Positions 9,412-21,979 are shown, numbered from the stretch's first letter. The stretch is DNA of 60,563 bases from an uncultured Candidatus Saccharibacteria bacterium (GCA_964624785.1 CAZUXR010000003.1:1-60563), one strand, 5' to 3'. Numbers and translations: made by a program. Notes: generated by a model not told the origin, from the letters alone.

Positions 9412-10698
9412 GTGGGTTCAAAACGAGTAGCGGTAGAACGCGCCCTGTACTTTATGTTATTTGGGCTTATGGGGCTATCGCTGCTCCTGTTCGTCTTCCA
9501 GAATAACTATAAGCATTTGTGGGAATTATACGGGCGTGTGTATTTTATATTGCTCCTAATTTACACGTGGTTTATATTCATCCTGCTTTTTATCGGAGAT
9601 ATGAAAAAGCCGAAGACTTACGCTTTGCCTGCGCAGACGAACAGCGCTGGTAAACGGATAGCCGTGGTTATGCCGTGTTTTAACGAATCGGCAGAACTGC
9701 TGTATAGATCGGTAAAATCAATATTTTTTGCGGAAGGCACTAAAGAGATTTTGATCGTCGACGATGGTTCTACGGATTTAAAGTCAAAAGAACTCTTGCG
9801 GCAGCTAGCGGCAAATACCAGCATTAAAATTCATTTTTTTGATAGCAATAAAGGCAAGCGCCACGCCCTACACTACGCCGTTAAGCGCCTTACAGAACAC
9901 GCGGATTATGTGGTGACAGTAGACAGCGACACAGTGTTAGATAAATACGCGCTGGTTCGGTTAATTGAACCTTTTGAGGATCCAAAAGTTGGCGCCACAA
10001 GTGGCGATGTGCGGCTGTTGAACGAAAAAAAGAATGTTCTAACAAGGATGGTTGGTGCTTACTATTGGATCGGCCTTCATATTTATAAACGTGCCCAGTC
10101 AGCGATCGGGATTGTAGTATGTTGTAGCGGGTGCTTGTCGGCTTACCGCGCGGATTTGATGAAAGGGCTTATTGATGAATTCGTTAATCAGAAGTTTTTT
10201 GGAGAGCAATGTACGCACTCAGAAGATCGCCATTTAACCAATCTGGTGTTAAAAAGGGGATTCCATGTAAAATTTGTGCCCGAAGCCATTAGCTATACAG
10301 AGACGCCGTCAACGGTAAAAGGATTTTTAAAGCAGCAACAACGCTGGAAGAGGGGGTACATAAGAGAGTCAATCTATACGCTTACGTACGCTTGGCGCGT
10401 GCGTCCTATATTGTTCTTCGAAATTTTGTTATGGGAATTGACTATCCCGTTTTTGTCATTTGGGCTTATGATAGCGCTGTTCGTGTCAATTGTTACCGAT
10501 CCTATGTTCTTTTTAACAACTGTTTTGCCGGCTTGGATAATGTTTATGATTGTGCGCTATATCCACATATTCTTTTACGCAAAACGTAAGATACCCGGGC
10601 TGCTGGTTTACATGGTTTTTTATGATTTGTTTTTGTATTGGCAAAGTATTTACGCGTTGTTTACGGTAAGGAATAAAAGCTGGATTACACGCGGATAA
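9412..10698 (+). CDS. Processive GT2 glycosyltransferase, hyaluronan synthase/NodC-like
   Basis: DDGS, DSDT, CCSGCLSAYR, SEDRHLTN, QQQRW motifs; N- and C-terminal TMs. Confidence 0.85.
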   Translation: MGSKRVAVERALYFMLFGLMGLSLLLFVFQNNYKHLWELYGRVYFILLLIYTWFIFILLFIGDMKKPKTYALPAQTNSAGKRIAVVMPCFNESAELLYRSVKSIFFAEGTKEILIVDDGSTDLKSKELLRQLAANTSIKIHFFDSNKGKRHALHYAVKRLTEHADYVVTVDSDTVLDKYALVRLIEPFEDPKVGATSGDVRLLNEKKNVLTRMVGAYYWIGLHIYKRAQSAIGIVVCCSGCLSAYRADLMKGLIDEFVNQKFFGEQCTHSEDRHLTNLVLKRGFHVKFVPEAISYTETPSTVKGFLKQQQRWKRGYIRESIYTLTYAWRVRPILFFEILLWELTIPFLSFGLMIALFVSIVTDPMFFLTTVLPAWIMFMIVRYIHIFFYAKRKIPGLLVYMVFYDLFLYWQSIYALFTVRNKSWITRG

Positions 10699-16105: not shown

Positions 16106-17119
16106 CTAAAGTCTTCGGAGTTTGCGTCGAGCTGTTTCGAAACTGTATGTTAGTGGGTAAACTACAGGGTTAATAATGAGATCGTGTGCTGGCACATAAG
16201 CAACATCTTGTCCGCCGAAACCACGTTTAAAAACCGACACACCGTAGAATCGATGTTTTGTTTGCCCGTGATCGGTAATGCCCCAAAAGTTATACCGAGT
16301 GCAGCCGCGTTTTTTAGCCTCGGCAATTGCTTGCCACTGTATAGCATAAGCACCCGGGAATTTACGCGCTAGGTCCGTGCTGGCTCCGTAGTGATAAGCC
16401 GCCTCTTTGCCGTAAAAAATTATAAAAGCCATGGCGAGTAGTTGACCTTCATATGTGCTGCGGTATAAAAGTACTTTTCCGTCTTTGGCGAAAGCTTTAA
16501 ATTGTTCATTTAAAAACTTCTTGCTAAATGGCACAAATCCTTGTCGTTGCGCTGTAGCTAGCTGCAATTTATAGAACTCATCAATATCTTTAGTGTCGTT
16601 GCTGGATGAAACTTCTATGCCGAGCTTTGTCGAGCGGTTTATTTCGTATCGGGTGCCCTTTCGCATGGCGTGTTTTAATTCCTCTTCGGATAAGCTTAGA
16701 TTAAGCTGGCTGGTTAGGTCTGCCGTAGCGTGCATCGGGCTTTTGTGAAATCCAAGTTTACGAATGTTGGCACGATTCGACAGCATATCTAATAGTTGTG
16801 GCCGTAGACGCACAAAGATACATTTGTTATCGGCAGCAGCTTTTTTGACTGTATCTCGCCATTCGGTAACAATTTTTTGATCATTCCAGTCTAAAATAGG
16901 TCCACCTACGATAACCATATGGCGTCCGCGCCGTGCCGGTTCGATTACCCCCTGAGTAACGCCTACCAACTTGGAATTTTTATAAAACCCGTATCGCAGG
17001 ACTTTGTGCCCTAGGCTTTCGTGGAACTCACCCCAATTCCAGGAATGTAAAAAGTTGGCTTCCGGGTGGGTGGACATAAAATCCTCCCATTGTCGTTTAT
17101 CTTCTATGATTTTTGCCAT
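16106..17119 (-). CDS. FemABX-family aminoacyl-tRNA-dependent peptidyltransferase
   Basis: NFLHSWNWG, GGPILDW, TRYEINRS, AYHYGAS, YNFWGI, GVSVFKRGFGG; compact FemX-like size without coiled coil. Confidence 0.9.
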   Translation of the reverse strand: MAKIIEDKRQWEDFMSTHPEANFLHSWNWGEFHESLGHKVLRYGFYKNSKLVGVTQGVIEPARRGRHMVIVGGPILDWNDQKIVTEWRDTVKKAAADNKCIFVRLRPQLLDMLSNRANIRKLGFHKSPMHATADLTSQLNLSLSEEELKHAMRKGTRYEINRSTKLGIEVSSSNDTKDIDEFYKLQLATAQRQGFVPFSKKFLNEQFKAFAKDGKVLLYRSTYEGQLLAMAFIIFYGKEAAYHYGASTDLARKFPGAYAIQWQAIAEAKKRGCTRYNFWGITDHGQTKHRFYGVSVFKRGFGGQDVAYVPAHDLIINPVVYPLTYSFETARRKLRRL

Positions 17120-18285
17120 TGTTTGATCCTATCGCAAATTATTAGGGCAACATCTGGAGTTATGTGGCGGTGGGTTGGCAAGTTGATGAGTTTGCTCGCT
17201 ATCAACTCCGCCCTTGGGCATTGGCCGGTTTTATAGCTAGTCTTACCTAAATATTTCTTTGGACCTATTGGGGCATCATACCAAGTATCGCTGATGAAGA
17301 TTTTGTTTTTCCGTAAGTAGTTTAGCAGGGAAGAGCGATCAGGCACGAGTATAGGAAAACGCAAATACGACGATTTGCTTTTGGAGAGCGGTGTTATTAA
17401 TATGTCATCCGGCAGATTGTTGTGATAAATTTCCGCAATTTTTTGTCGATGTGATAATTCTTGGTTGCGGTATGGCCAGAGGTTTTTAACGATCAATTTA
17501 GCGGTGTGATTACTCATGGAGCATATGCTGTTTATTTCGCTAGCCATTGGCGTGGAAAGTAGCTTGAATCTTTTTAGAATGTAGTGCAAGGCTCGTCCTA
17601 GCCCAAAATCATAAGTATTACGAATTAGCATTGTCCAAAATGGGTAGAATCTATTTTTGGTGCGCGGCCAAGTCCCAGCTTTTGGCAGAGATATAAAACT
17701 ATCGGTCGCGTTGTTTGGGCGGCGATCAATCAATGCTCCGCCAGCTACGGCGTCGAGAGGCTTATCTTGACTAAATGACATCATCGTAAGCTCTCCAACT
17801 GTTCCCGCTTCTTCGCCGCTTGGATAAATCGCTCCAGAGCTATGCGCTAGATCTTCTATAATTATGATTTTTTCTTGCGAGCAATAATCCTTCAAGTATG
17901 CGATATTGGCAGGATATCCTAGGGTATTTTGTACTATAATGGCCTTCATATCCTTATTACGCCTAAGTTCGTCAATATCGAAATTGAGTTGTCTGGCAGC
18001 CAGATCTATCATGATTGGCTTTAGCCCTGCGCTTATAACAGCCTGGTAGACCACGTAGCAAGTCAGGCCGTTGATACCGACCGAGCTACCTGCTGGCAGA
18101 TGAATGCTCCTTAAAGCTAATTCTAAAGCATTGCGTCCTTTATATGTAAGAATTGCCTGGCCTTTGTAGTAACCGCCAAGTTCTTTAGCGAGCTCTTCGT
18201 AGTCTTTTTTGGAGCCGCCACCGATCAAATTCTTGAGGATAAAACCAGTTGAATAATTTGATCCTAGGGAATTAAAAACACTCAC
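17104..18285 (-). CDS. DegT/DnrJ/EryC1/StrS PLP-dependent aminotransferase family
   Basis: IEDLAHSSG, SFSQDK (PLP lysine), GGAL, LINLPTH. Confidence 0.85.
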   Translation of the reverse strand: MSVFNSLGSNYSTGFILKNLIGGGSKKDYEELAKELGGYYKGQAILTYKGRNALELALRSIHLPAGSSVGINGLTCYVVYQAVISAGLKPIMIDLAARQLNFDIDELRRNKDMKAIIVQNTLGYPANIAYLKDYCSQEKIIIIEDLAHSSGAIYPSGEEAGTVGELTMMSFSQDKPLDAVAGGALIDRRPNNATDSFISLPKAGTWPRTKNRFYPFWTMLIRNTYDFGLGRALHYILKRFKLLSTPMASEINSICSMSNHTAKLIVKNLWPYRNQELSHRQKIAEIYHNNLPDDILITPLSKSKSSYLRFPILVPDRSSLLNYLRKNKIFISDTWYDAPIGPKKYLGKTSYKTGQCPRAELIASKLINLPTHRHITPDVALIICDRIKQWQKS

Positions 18286-18980
18286 TTGCTGGCCTTAAGC
18301 GCGGAACTAATTATATCGGCAACTTGGCCGGGGTGGTTTTGGAACGGTGCATGGTGTGCACTTTCGATTACGTTGAAGCTGGAGTTTTGGATTAAACTAT
18401 GCATTTTTTGCCCATCAGCTAGCGGTGTAATTGTGTCCTCCTTACCCCAGATAATAGCCACAGGTAATTTAATGGTATTAAAATCTATGAGTTGATCGGC
18501 AGCTATCATATTGCGCATAGTTAGTTTCATGTTGTCCGATGCTTCGTAATAATCGCTAGCTTTAATAACTTTGTAGAAAAGTTTCTTAAGAGTAGGTGCG
18601 AGATTCAGAATTTTACCCGGCATCGAAAGTATTCGTAACATTTTGAGTTTAAATAGCCGCTTAAATTCCTGATGTGCAATTCCTGCGCTATCAATCAAGA
18701 TTAACTGATCGAGCCGTCCGGGGTATTTTTGTGCGTAAGACAGGGCGATTCGTCCTCCATTGGAGTGGCCGATAACGACTGGATTTTTGTAGTCTTTAAG
18801 TTGGTCATTGAGCCAGCCAATGTATCCGTTAATATCCCAGGTTTTGTCACTTGGTTCTGTTAAGCCGGGCACTCTTAACTGCACTGGCTCTATCCCCCGA
18901 ATTTTTAGCTCCCCAATCAAGGAGGTCCATTTATCCAGTGAATAGCTCCAGCCGTGAATTATGAATACCCGTTTGTTCAT
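18282..18980 (-). CDS. Alpha/beta hydrolase
   Basis: IHGW, GHSNGG nucleophile elbow, WGKEDTITP, HAP; ATGA overlap with upstream gene. Confidence 0.88.
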   Translation of the reverse strand: MNKRVFIIHGWSYSLDKWTSLIGELKIRGIEPVQLRVPGLTEPSDKTWDINGYIGWLNDQLKDYKNPVVIGHSNGGRIALSYAQKYPGRLDQLILIDSAGIAHQEFKRLFKLKMLRILSMPGKILNLAPTLKKLFYKVIKASDYYEASDNMKLTMRNMIAADQLIDFNTIKLPVAIIWGKEDTITPLADGQKMHSLIQNSSFNVIESAHHAPFQNHPGQVADIISSALKASK

Positions 18981-20248
18981 CGTGGTAACCCCCAGGCTTG
19001 ACGGCGTTTGATCCATGCTGCTTCGCGCCTTACAAGTTTTTTTGCATCGCTAGAGTCGGCAAGTAGCTGCTCGATCACTCCTTCTAGCCCCATAGCGCCT
19101 TTAAATAATATAACTTCTCCACCTTTTAAATTTTTTTGCATGTAGTCCAATACTTCTTTTGGACTCAGTAAGGATACGTTCGGAGGTTTGCTAGATTTTA
19201 GCAGAGGGTAAGTGTATTTATGGGTTCTGGAACCGAGTAGGATTATTTGCGCTACGCCAAGATCATTGATTTTTGTTGCTAATCTTTTGTGTTCGTCTTC
19301 CTCTAAGCTGCCTTGCTCCAGAATATCGCCGATCACTAGCCACTTTTTACTGGCAGCATAATTCTTAAAAAGATCAAACACGGCTATTGTTGCCCCCAAC
19401 CCAGTATTGTAAGTACTATCAATAAGGGTCGTTCCTCGCTTGCCCTTAAAGACAGAACTGCGACCAGGTGGCATGCGTAGCTTCTGGTAGTCAAAGTCGA
19501 AAGACATACCAAGATAGTCGAGTAGACTATTGACCATTTGAAGACTTATACCAAGTTCTTTTGGGTGCAGCCCAGCAAGACTGATTTTTTGTTGATTTAC
19601 CGTAAACAAAGTTCGACCACTTTCGAGCGAGTAAAATGAAACAGCCTTGCTGGATATTCGATCTACTCTTACGTCCTGGGCTACTCTGTTAAGTTGGCTT
19701 GCAATCTCTTCCTGGCCAGCATTCGCTATAACGAGTTTTTGGGCCGCTTCGGCAAAGTATCCAAACTCAGTCGCAATCGCCTCTTTATGATTAACAAAAT
19801 TTTTATTTTTTACGATAGAGTCAAAGTTCATGCTATGCGTATGGTAACTGTTAATCCATATGGTCACTTCTGGTTCGAGTAGCCGCGCCAAGAACTTGCC
19901 TTCGTTAGGACGATCGCAGTCAGCTTCTACGATGTAGAGTTTTTGAACAGGTGCTTTGCGTAGGGTTCTGATTGGGGCGAGCAGAAAACGGCTAGGCCAT
20001 TGAGCGCGCGAAGTTATTCCAGACATTCCTAGGATATGCATCGGGATACCGATGGCACTGTTAGCAAAATGGCTATAGTTGGCTTGCCCTCCAAGCTGGG
20101 CTTCCACTAGATGTAGTAGCGTGGTTTTCCCACTCGAACCGGTAATAACGATTATTCTTGGTTTCCACCTTTCGAGTACCAACTTGGCCCAGAATGCAAA
20201 GTAGCTGGCCACTACAAAGTACAGGCTTTTCTTTAATTTGCGGAGCAT
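18977..20248 (-). CDS. MurF-like Mur ligase
   Basis: ITGSSGKTT P-loop, PGRS, IDSTYN, IGDILEQG, ILFKG. Confidence 0.85.
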   Translation of the reverse strand: MLRKLKKSLYFVVASYFAFWAKLVLERWKPRIIVITGSSGKTTLLHLVEAQLGGQANYSHFANSAIGIPMHILGMSGITSRAQWPSRFLLAPIRTLRKAPVQKLYIVEADCDRPNEGKFLARLLEPEVTIWINSYHTHSMNFDSIVKNKNFVNHKEAIATEFGYFAEAAQKLVIANAGQEEIASQLNRVAQDVRVDRISSKAVSFYSLESGRTLFTVNQQKISLAGLHPKELGISLQMVNSLLDYLGMSFDFDYQKLRMPPGRSSVFKGKRGTTLIDSTYNTGLGATIAVFDLFKNYAASKKWLVIGDILEQGSLEEDEHKRLATKINDLGVAQIILLGSRTHKYTYPLLKSSKPPNVSLLSPKEVLDYMQKNLKGGEVILFKGAMGLEGVIEQLLADSSDAKKLVRREAAWIKRRQAWGLPR

Positions 20249-20276
20249 GTCTTCTATTTTAACTCACCGAGGGTAT

Positions 20277-20303
20277 AAAAACAGCCACTAAAGAAGTGGC
20301 TGT
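20277..20303 (-). terminator. Intrinsic terminator downstream of the minihelix RNA
   Basis: Minus strand ACAGCCAC-TTCTTTA-GTGGCTGT-TTTT. Confidence 0.75.
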
Positions 20304-20314
20304 CAGTGTTTTTC

Positions 20315-20352
20315 TGGTGGAGCAATTGCAGGTTTAAGCCTGCGCATGCCCC
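20315..20352 (-). ncRNA. Putative tRNA-Ala-like acceptor minihelix RNA (38 nt)
   Basis: GGGGCAUGCGCAGGCUUAAACCUGCAAUUGCUCCACCA: 6-bp acceptor stem with G3:U70, 5-bp distal stem, discriminator A and CCA; flanked by promoter and terminator. Confidence 0.7.
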
Positions 20353-20372: not shown

Positions 20373-20696
20373 AAAAGTTCAAAAATTAGAAACCGTACGC
20401 AGAAAGTGGTAGCCGACCCGGCAGACTTGGATTTTACTAAGCTTCAAAAGAGATTCGGCGGGGGAATCAAAGACAATCAAAATCGAGGGACGAGCGGGGC
20501 GAGTCAGCCTTCGGCTGGTAAGCAATGAGACTTGGGTGGTGTTTAGATTTCTTTTTGCATTTTATGTTACAATTTGCTTGAGGCTAGGTAAAAAATAAAC
20601 AGGAAAATATAACCATGAAATGGCGCTTAATCTTGGTCTTATAGCTAGCAAACCCATTGGAAAAAATACTGCGCAAAATCACTACAAGGTAGTCAA

Positions 20697-21443
20697 ATGA
20701 GTCTCGAGGTATCATCAACCACTCCAGCTAACCAAGAACCGGTTAAACTTTATGAAACCATACATTATCCGTATGTAGACATAGTTATTAATAACGACTC
20801 AGATTATGCATCGTATGGGACACAGTTGGCCGAGCTTTTTCAAGACGGTGTTCCGCTTGATTGGGTTAACCATCAACCACGAGGTATCAATTCACTACTC
20901 AAAGGTGAGGTGGATGGTCGGACGTTCATTATGAAAGAAAAGCGCTATGGCGGTAAGAAGCGGGTTGAGAGTATTCTGTTATCAAAACAGTTTGGTAAAT
21001 ACGCAAATCCCGAAGACGCTCGAGCTGCCTATGCCATGACAAGCGTACTGAATGAGATTACATTATCACCGCGGGTTAAGCGGGCGTTAGCTGAGCCACA
21101 AGCACAAGACATGGCTCAAGATGCTGGTTACAGCTCAATCAGTCTTATCGAACCAGTCATAGCCATTAGTCAACACAGTGGGCAAAAAGCATTAGTGTAT
21201 CCATTCATTGCAGACGCTAAACCACTGAGTGAAATCGTTAAAGAACTTCCTCGCGGGGATGAGAGAGAGGGTTTTATAGATCGTAATTTCAGACTTATCC
21301 GTCAGCTTGAAAGTTATTTACGAGAACATGGCATTGCAGCTAATGACCTCAATCGACGTAATCTGATGCGTGATACCAATAATAATCTGTATGTAATGGA
21401 TATTGAAGGTTACGTGCCCGTTTTAAATGGTGCCGACCAATGA
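20697..21443 (+). CDS. Protein-kinase-like fold protein
   Basis: FIMKEK (lysine strand), NDLNRRNLM catalytic-loop-like, YVMDIE DFG-like. Confidence 0.6.
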   Translation: MSLEVSSTTPANQEPVKLYETIHYPYVDIVINNDSDYASYGTQLAELFQDGVPLDWVNHQPRGINSLLKGEVDGRTFIMKEKRYGGKKRVESILLSKQFGKYANPEDARAAYAMTSVLNEITLSPRVKRALAEPQAQDMAQDAGYSSISLIEPVIAISQHSGQKALVYPFIADAKPLSEIVKELPRGDEREGFIDRNFRLIRQLESYLREHGIAANDLNRRNLMRDTNNNLYVMDIEGYVPVLNGADQ

Positions 21444-21979
21444 ACCGATATTCGATCGAATGCTCTCAACCCTATTCAGATAACCCTCTCAATCACAATG
21501 CTACTAAAGCAGCATTGGAAGGCCTGCTAAAACGCATCCAAAGGGAAGGTGCGACTGCTTCGTTAGTGGCCTTAGTTGATGACACAACTCACGAGAATCC
21601 CGACTATGACTTTGATAACTACGCCCGTTGGCTGCACACAAATGGCTTTGAGCCCGATAGTGTTGCTCATGAATCAGCTATTCGTCCCGCCAGCGATCAA
21701 CTACTTAACGCTATAGACTTTACAAAACTCAACTCAGAAACAGCTTCTGCGCTACAATCGGAGAATAAATATACCAGCCAGTTATTTATTGCGGCTTGGT
21801 GTCTACTGCGTCTTGGCTATATAGAAGACAACAGCTTTGATAAAAGCTTGCAAGCCGAAAAACTAGTTAATGTGCTGCCTCTTTCATTTAAAGAAGGCGA
21901 AGAGCAGTCACTTGATATTATTCGTGCAACTCCGTTTGCTGAAGCAGTCGATAAAATCGAGTATATTTTCGTCCCGTAG
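21440..21979 (+). CDS. Hypothetical protein translationally coupled to the kinase-like gene
   Basis: ATGA overlap; YSIE, LVDD, AAWCLLRLG, NVLP motifs. Confidence 0.7.
   Translation: MNRYSIECSQPYSDNPLNHNATKAALEGLLKRIQREGATASLVALVDDTTHENPDYDFDNYARWLHTNGFEPDSVAHESAIRPASDQLLNAIDFTKLNSETASALQSENKYTSQLFIAAWCLLRLGYIEDNSFDKSLQAEKLVNVLPLSFKEGEEQSLDIIRATPFAEAVDKIEYIFVP

Follow-up and report, generated by a model that had tools for sequence, protein, structure and literature searches.

How do bacteria without D-alanine-D-alanine ligase (Ddl) complete the peptide stem of their peptidoglycan? The textbook view is that Ddl alone supplies D-Ala-D-Ala, the substrate of penicillin-binding proteins (PBPs) and the target of vancomycin. 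The question is raised by a locus of an uncultured Candidatus Saccharibacteria bacterium (GCA_964624785.1), which was analysed within a stretch of 60,563 nucleotides (CAZUXR010000003.1:1-60563; hereafter the window). Four minus-strand open reading frames (ORFs) at 16106..20248 encode, in the order of transcription, a MurF-like ligase that we call MUR2, an alpha/beta hydrolase, a DegT-like pyridoxal phosphate (PLP) enzyme and a FemABX-family aminoacyl-tRNA transferase (Fem). An initial annotation of this DNA had proposed an uncharacterised envelope modification pathway of the candidate phyla radiation (CPR), with either a lipid II stem or an amino sugar as the acceptor. We find that these genes form a real cassette, conserved among the ultra-small Patescibacteria, which occupies the genomic position of ddl, probably replaces the D-Ala-D-Ala ligase and is likely to complete the stem by a new route.

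Conservation of the cassette

The genes overlap their neighbours by 4 nt (ligase/hydrolase, ATGA), 4 nt (hydrolase/DegT, GTGA) and 16 nt (DegT/Fem), and the ORF coordinates bear out the overlaps first described for them. The first overlap requires a hydrolase start at 18980; the longest hydrolase ORF begins at 19016, which would give a 40-nt overlap, and hydrolase relatives align from 18980 and not from 19016.

Gene neighbourhoods, proposed from the outset as a check, were compared at 41 loci, of which 40 surround the best DegT hits among 301 genomes of the class Saccharimonadia and one is an additional locus (L010). The order MUR2-hydrolase-DegT-Fem on one strand was found in 33 of the 41, where DegT is present by construction and the other three genes are the test; the cassette is thus co-conserved. 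Two Fem domains are carried by 21 of the 33 cassettes (all of one family, hence kin), DegT and Fem each occur twice in three cassettes, and DegT is fused to Fem in three, a fusion present in 14 of 268 fetched proteins. A MUR2 profile matched 37 of the 301 class genomes in 15 genera, comprising the 33 full cassettes, three genomes of genus g44 that read MUR2-hydrolase-Fem-Fem with DegT elsewhere, and G142, where the locus lies on a 2.5-kb contig. Outside the class, MUR2 occurs in four more genomes of a 321-genome phylum sample, two of them with the full cassette. A metagenome scan returned nine close loci, and the sole new arrangement was one without an adjacent DegT.

Distribution of Ddl and the ddl slot

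In the class sample, Ddl was called with TIGR01205 at E<=1e-40 and is present in 162 of 301 genomes: in one of 37 MUR2 carriers and in 161 of 264 non-carriers. With a completeness of at least 90% required, the contrast is 0/35 against 145/225. Because eighteen of the carriers represent one genus, lineages were counted as well; carriers with Ddl were found in one of 15 genera and one of 10 families (rough binomial p of 9e-6 and 2e-3, with kin still not independent). Carriers and non-carriers also differ within g11, g44, f1, f29, f34 and f37. In genus g44, the three carriers lack both alanine racemase (Alr) and Ddl, whereas both enzymes are present, and this DegT is absent, in the two non-carriers. 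A family relative of the window's genome (G213) reads murF-ddl-leuS, and the window's genome itself (G000; 844 kb, 96.5% complete) reads murF-leuS with overlapping stop and start; no Ddl was found in it by tblastn with three types of Ddl.

A second sample of 121 phylum genomes contains 25 with this DegT subfamily, 23 of them outside Saccharimonadia. In 15 of these 23, DegT lies directly behind a different (type A) murF, and Fem follows DegT in 22. Four DegT-Fem units are located inside division and cell wall (dcw) clusters, for example ftsI-murA-hydrolase-murF-DegT-Fem-mraY-ftsW-murG. Ddl-bearing genomes read hydrolase-murF-ddl (L086, L265 and L266, and L096 with a 1.7-kb gap), so that DegT and Fem occupy the ddl slot. 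The number of DegT carriers with Ddl depends on the threshold, being 9, 4 and 2 of 25 at E 1e-30, 1e-40 and 1e-50, compared with 63, 61 and 59 of the 96 phylum genomes without this DegT subfamily. A clear Ddl (E<=1e-50) is seen in none of the carriers of a murF-linked DegT. Clear Ddl and DegT coincide in G317 and G343, with G366 a probable third, and there the DegT-Fem pair is divergent and unlinked to murF. As a separate observation, two Ddl-less genomes (G410 and G426) have a transglutaminase-like gene, not murF, directly upstream of DegT-Fem (L239:6632-7573 and L253:4499-5464).

Co-conservation, the murF and dcw context and the exclusion with Ddl therefore uphold the idea that CPR bacteria have an uncharacterised envelope pathway connected with the peptidoglycan stem. 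The word modification fits it less well, because the cassette stands in the place of ddl and looks like core synthesis. Its role is likely the synthesis of the stem itself, in Ddl's stead, and not the tailoring of an amino sugar.

The MurF-like ligase

MUR2 (18977..20248, minus strand, 423 amino acids) was classified by Pfam and NCBIfam matches, fold, motifs and a tree. It contains Mur_ligase_C/M domains, and its top NCBIfam match is murF, under the cut-off of that model (TIGR01143, 109 of 288.6 bits); in 50 Saccharimonadia genomes, no gene reaches this cut-off. The N-terminal domain is missing, as it is from the ordinary MurF of G000. The structural model has a mean predicted local distance difference test (pLDDT) score of 93.3, and the ten folds that match it best are all MurF. 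The P-loop, Glu108, His138 and the ATP-site motifs D-S-T-Y-N and G-D-I-L-E-Q-G are retained. In a quick tree, MUR2 forms a single branch (support 100) that is sister to the ordinary MurF of Saccharimonadia; a second branch (support 96) unites 13 of the 14 type A MurFs that are linked to DegT. The latter have an altered C-terminal motif, EGRxP instead of the xNDxPD of their Ddl-linked kin. An assignment to MurT, FolC or MurC/D/E was rejected, as fold matches and tree favour MurF. MUR2 may add a D-Ala-D-Ala-type dipeptide to the tripeptide; comparison of motifs leaves the substrate unfixed.

MUR2 is the fifth Mur ligase of G000: MurC, MurD, MurE and an ordinary MurF were located elsewhere by motifs and similarity, the latter at C6:1130-2419, so that MUR2 is not the only MurF. 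An ordinary MurF (E<=1e-40) was found in 4 of 33 carriers and in 16 of 17 non-carriers tested. Degeneration of the ordinary MurF in carriers was dropped as evidence since a similar degenerate copy is present in the non-carrier G050. Family f2 (L092, L094, L095, L200:1835-2794 and L201:9647-10594) contains MurF copies that are degenerate or shortened and whose catalytic motifs have eroded, both with and without the cassette.

The DegT-fold PLP enzyme

The PLP enzyme (17104..18285, minus strand, 393 amino acids, GTG start) matches DegT (PF01041) at E 4e-33 and belongs to a distinct subfamily. Its model (pLDDT 92.7) is closest to sugar aminotransferases, at 17-22% identity and a template modelling (TM) score of about 0.7; sugar-aminotransferase sequence models score far under their cut-offs (best 76/420 bits). 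Asp145, His148 and Lys175 are kept, and Asp145 and Lys175 are invariant among homologues. In an alignment to QdtB and perosamine synthase, Cys76 replaces Phe/Tyr and Arg51 replaces Thr. The marks of DegT sugar aminotransferases, an aromatic residue after a conserved Thr (T-F/T-Y) and a Gly-Thr phosphate motif, are thus lost, and the enzyme has a helical insertion at 205-239 and an invariant Trp335. Cys76 is present in 120/120 close homologues and in 145/148 cluster representatives. The position that it occupies presumably stacks on PLP opposite the lysine, and MetC-like enzymes that racemise as a side reaction presumably use a second acid-base residue there. Cys76 is accordingly placed as a candidate for such a residue. 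DegT look-alike clusters were also seen in other phyla (ESM Atlas). In L059, L065 and L069, the first of two DegT copies ends in a tail of about 230-270 charged, low-complexity residues that matches no Pfam family.

The Fem transferase

Fem (16106..17119, minus strand, 337 amino acids) matches FemAB (PF02388) at E 3e-42, with 145 bits against a cut-off of 24. It is a double-GNAT protein of the FemX(Wv) type without a coiled coil, scores 71/500 bits with the FemX model, and is the only Fem in G000. The catalytic pair Phe297-Lys298 is kept. The position of FemX Arg211 is Phe198 in the cassette Fem and Pro, Ser or Tyr in its relatives; that of Lys36 is His, as judged by an alignment to Staphylococcus aureus FemX only. 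An Arg211 equivalent is absent from all murF-linked Fems and kept by several stand-alone or murE-linked ones. In FemX, Arg211 binds the pentapeptide precursor, and the enzyme requires only an acceptor stem with G2-C71 (PMC2655667).

A proposed route to the stem end

The two full-length PBPs of G000 keep SxxK, SxN and KTG, and an L,D-transpeptidase was not found in three of four carriers tested; a D-Ala-D-X end of the stem is therefore still expected. Alr was detected in 8 of 80 genomes overall and in 1 of 35 MUR2 carriers (G516, with alr just downstream of the cassette), and was not found in G000. Its absence is weak evidence, as Alr is rare everywhere.

We propose that Fem would move L-Ala from Ala-tRNA onto an alanine acceptor, either free or carrier-bound. 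Fem enzymes put an L-residue on an amine and leave a free alpha-amine, as the PLP enzyme needs. Using Lys175 and Cys76 in a two-base mechanism, that enzyme would then epimerise the residue with the free amine to D-Ala, and MUR2, a MurF variant dedicated to this task, would join the dipeptide to UDP-MurNAc-tripeptide. The hydrolase would proofread or release, and a nearby tRNA-like minihelix would be an optional, non-decoding donor of alanine. Every chemical step of this scheme (alanyl dipeptide formation by Fem, PLP-dependent epimerisation and ligation by the MurF variant) is one that we infer, and we regard the chances for and against it as evenly balanced. The Ala-tRNA route is favoured because Fem leaves a free alpha-amine for the PLP enzyme, and because of two precedents: the Fem-like DhpH-C acylates a free alanine analogue (PMC12945691), and MurD2/MurL is an add-L-then-epimerise route in peptidoglycan (PMC5808125). 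Further precedents are the racemisation of alanine by GlyA and MetC (PMC3935232) and the ability of FemX to make do with an acceptor stem that has G2-C71 (PMC2655667). DegT-Fem fusions and cassettes with two DegT and two Fem copies also fit, since two rounds of addition and epimerisation would use such sets. More tentatively, about one eighth of Saccharimonadia and up to one fifth of the sampled Patescibacteria might make a D-Ala-D-Ala end without Ddl or Alr, through a Fem fed by tRNA-alanine (in some lineages by the minihelix) and a Cys/Lys PLP epimerase.

Several observations weigh against replacement of Ddl or against this chemistry. The sole Ddl-bearing MUR2 carrier is G142 (77% complete), where no DegT was found. 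Weak Ddl-like hits (E 3e-35 to 2e-42) occur in seven further DegT carriers. In the four of family f68, the conserved N-terminal Glu and RxD Arg, residues with catalytic roles in Ddl, are missing; two hits are tandem ATP-grasp proteins, and that of G366 is a truncated, real-looking Ddl. A divergent, murF-unlinked DegT-Fem pair occurs alongside Ddl in G061, G145, G277, G317, G343 and probably G366, and two carriers of such a pair (G061 and G148) also have Alr. Because the divergent pair coexists with Ddl, the DegT-Fem pair is not always a substitute for it. Furthermore, 103 of the 139 Ddl-less class genomes have no MUR2, so that loss of Ddl does not require MUR2 and other solutions exist; host supply is one guess for these genomes. 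GlyA, which is known to yield D-Ala as a side activity (PMC3935232), is present in G000. As Alr is rare anyway and GlyA is present, D-Ala may come from elsewhere. The role given to Cys76 is drawn from an alignment, the ordinary MurF of G000 looks intact, and a plain, free D-Ala-D-Ala product would not obviously create a need for a dedicated ligase.

In family f68, L260-L263 each encode a full-length Ddl-like ATP-grasp protein without the conserved N-terminal Glu and RxD Arg. Neither Ddl nor MUR2 was found in the whole of family f25 (0/8) or genus g26 (0/11). A D-amino-acid transaminase was considered as a source of D-Ala, and none was found.

Alternative explanations

Ddl could also be replaced by a pathway with an end other than D-Ala-D-Ala, in which the PLP enzyme acts as a transaminase and makes an amine (D-Ala from pyruvate, or another small one), Fem alanylates it and the adapted MurF adds the product. 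All evidence from exclusion and gene position fits this alternative equally well, and the DegT fold and PLP lysine are of the transaminase type. In addition, the MurFs associated with DegT-Fem have diverged, in two separate lineages, from those linked to Ddl, and DhpH joins a PLP domain to a Fem-like domain. The invariant Cys would be needless for transamination, however, and the PBP motifs are ordinary. Fem gives L-Ala, so that position 4 would be L without an epimerase, whereas D,D-transpeptidases need D-Ala at this position (PMC2655667). We judge a non-standard end unlikely.

Alternatively, Fem could build a side branch on residue 3, the PLP enzyme could turn it into a D-Ala branch to which MUR2 is adapted, and the loss of ddl could have a separate cause, such as import of D-Ala-D-Ala from the host. 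This is the usual role of Fem enzymes. It would accommodate the five or six genomes in which DegT-Fem pairs coexist with Ddl and the many Ddl-less genomes that keep MurF without the cassette (e.g. G050). Moreover, MurE of G000 has EDDR where DNPR is the usual motif, and this leaves residue 3 open. A side branch would explain neither the contrast of 0/35 and 145/225 nor why, in two MurF lineages, the pair stands in the position of ddl after murF, and the cassette Fems are without the FemX Arg211 that several stand-alone or murE-linked Fems keep; we consider it distinctly improbable.

Synthesis of a nucleoside diphosphate-amino sugar by DegT and its N-alanylation by Fem for a surface glycan, with ligase and hydrolase as accessory or chance neighbours, is hardly credible, although DegT enzymes are usually sugar aminotransferases and glycosyltransferase-like genes lie on either side of the murF-DegT-Fem unit of family f68. 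Neither a sugar dehydratase nor a glycosyltransferase is consistently found beside the cassette in Saccharimonadia, the unit lies within dcw clusters in four genomes, it rarely occurs with Ddl and its DegT has lost the sugar-aminotransferase features, all of which speaks against the amino-sugar branch of the initial annotation.

The alpha/beta hydrolase

The hydrolase (18282..18980, minus strand, 232 amino acids) resembles EstV and Cj0796c. It is an Abhydrolase_1 protein whose top match is the EstV family NF058580 (80/300 bits, below cut-off), and its triad Ser73-Asp182-His210 is invariant in 34 of 34 aligned sequences. Relatives adjoin murF in Ddl operons and in DegT-Fem operons alike. In Campylobacter, the hydrolase Cj0796c, which may be essential, is encoded next to ddl and murF (PMC5530802). 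The hydrolase thus accompanies MurF in both the Ddl and the DegT-Fem routes. Because it also stands beside murF in Ddl operons without a neighbouring Fem, it is not specific to the removal or editing of a Fem-added residue, the function first suggested for it.

The tRNA-Ala-like minihelix and other upstream elements

A tRNA-Ala-like minihelix of 38 nt is encoded upstream of the ligase (20315..20352, minus strand), with G1-C72, G2-C71, G3:U70, A73 and an encoded CCA, giving an ACCA end. It has full alanine identity, folds with a z of -3.3 and is the one place in the 844-kb genome that a strict pattern matches; it is similar to the acceptor stem of the G000 tRNA-Ala(GGC), which is encoded on another contig. 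Neither ARAGORN nor Rfam gave a match at 20315-20352. Between minihelix and operon lies a hairpin with T-runs on both sides (20281..20303, z -5.4), a likely terminator. It was listed as terminator-like on the plus strand, in a scan whose overall terminator counts are no higher than in shuffles, and a T-run is also present on the minus strand. A TAAAAT box (20256..20261, minus strand), 7 nt before the ligase ATG, is likely the -10 element of a leaderless transcript. Similar boxes stand just 5' of the ATG in most relatives, as judged by eye; the promoter scan missed the box. An alanyl-tRNA synthetase gene is present in G000, and its frame (G000:C2:35034-36971, about 648 amino acids) covers model positions 1-697 of 847 and seems to be without the C-terminal domain.

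Counterparts of 35-63 nt occur within about 200 nt of the ligase start, upstream of it, in L010, L041, L050 and L045 (in L045 on the opposite strand). Their interiors are unrelated, their folds are stable (z -2.2 to -6.3), and pair 7-66 varies, with U-A in two of them and C-G in the other two. The cassette of G000 lies at a different chromosomal site from these counterparts and retains its minihelix, which suggests that minihelix and cassette moved together. No minihelix was found near the other 29 related cassettes (4 of 33 have one, in addition to that of the window). With five cassettes in all, the minihelix was rejected as a fixed fifth part. Across the class, the pattern matched 15 of 301 genomes, two of them carriers, and a reversed control matched 11; a longer pattern, applied to five carriers, recovered the known copy of G231 and one unconvincing match. 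Similar alanine-identity hairpins are also present in genomes without the cassette. Because of this, and of its absence near the 29 cassettes, the minihelix is at most a predicted, optional, non-decoding alanine donor. As for the suggestion that the adjacent minihelix feeds the pathway, the element is real and co-located in five cassettes, but it is missing from the flanks of the others and occurs without a cassette. It may instead be a tRNA-derived relic. If such a natural minihelix is charged, it would be of separate interest for tRNA biology.

Related elements were recorded elsewhere. L050:2947-3005 and L045:8271-8333 are miniature three-armed cloverleaves of 59-63 nt with alanine identity, upstream of the ligase. 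Further alanine-identity hairpins lie between a DEAD helicase gene and cysS in L104 and L105 (one genus). The hairpins of L103, L114 and L250 are located downstream of cysS, immediately behind a tRNA-Ala gene, and at 1.6 kb from a DegT-Fem unit within a dcw cluster. Upstream of the minihelix in the window (20380-20560), G+C-rich intergenic hairpins have no Rfam match.

Relation to known systems

The cassette shares with the Alr, Ddl and MurF branch, including Campylobacter ddl-cj0796c-murF (PMC5530802), a MurF-fold ligase beside an alpha/beta hydrolase, the slot and the predicted end point. It differs in having no ATP-grasp ligase, usually no Alr, and Fem and a PLP enzyme where ddl would be. 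With FemX of Weissella viridescens, the cassette Fem has in common the double-GNAT fold without a coiled coil and the Phe-Lys pair, and the minihelix has the G1-C72, G2-C71 and ACCA read by FemX (PMC2655667). In contrast to FemX, the cassette Fem has Phe for Arg211 and is predicted to act on the main-chain end and not on a side branch. In dehydrophos synthesis, DhpH/DhpK likewise build a dipeptide on a small, free acceptor in a Fem-like reaction that depends on tRNA (PMC12945691), although this is secondary metabolism with phosphonate substrates and no Mur ligase. The alternative D-Glu route of Xanthomonas follows the same logic, a variant Mur ligase (MurD2) adding an L-residue that is then epimerised where the usual enzyme is lacking (PMC5808125), but it concerns a different residue, an ATP-dependent MurL instead of a PLP enzyme, and no tRNA. 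DegT/DnrJ/EryC1/StrS enzymes (QdtB, PerA, ArnB) share the fold and the PLP Asp and Lys, and are set apart by the Cys and Arg substitutions, helical insertion and invariant Trp335 of the cassette enzyme and its lack of a nucleotide-sugar gene context. The synthetic tRNA-Ala minihelix likewise presents G3:U70, A73 and CCA on a short hairpin; the one described here is genomic, varies from 35 to 63 nt and is known from sequence. Searches of open-access papers in PMC and bioRxiv listed no account of this cassette, of a route that replaces Ddl in Patescibacteria or of a natural minihelix associated with Fem.

If the proposed route is correct, the status of Ddl as the one source of D-Ala-D-Ala changes in a large and poorly understood phylum, and the missing ddl of many Patescibacteria is explained. 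It would also represent the first case in which tRNA is needed to make the main chain of peptidoglycan, assigning Fem a main-chain role and adding a candidate PLP peptide epimerase.

Genomic setting

Contigs from four soil DNA runs of one study span the stretch without joints or indels; these runs are possibly the source samples and hence not independent. Spread of the cassette by plasmid was considered and no match was found, and no composition shift that would indicate recent transfer was seen. The cassette is flanked by ftsH on one side and, on the other, by two unknown ORFs followed by ruvB. These two plus-strand ORFs (20697-21443 and 21440-21979) overlap and have no Pfam match above noise; the first has kinase-like motifs and a weak Kinase-PolyVal match (E 0.09). 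Farther away in the window, a plus-strand gene at 9412-10698 encodes a membrane GT2 glycosyltransferase with a QQQRW motif, similar to chitin and hyaluronan synthases.

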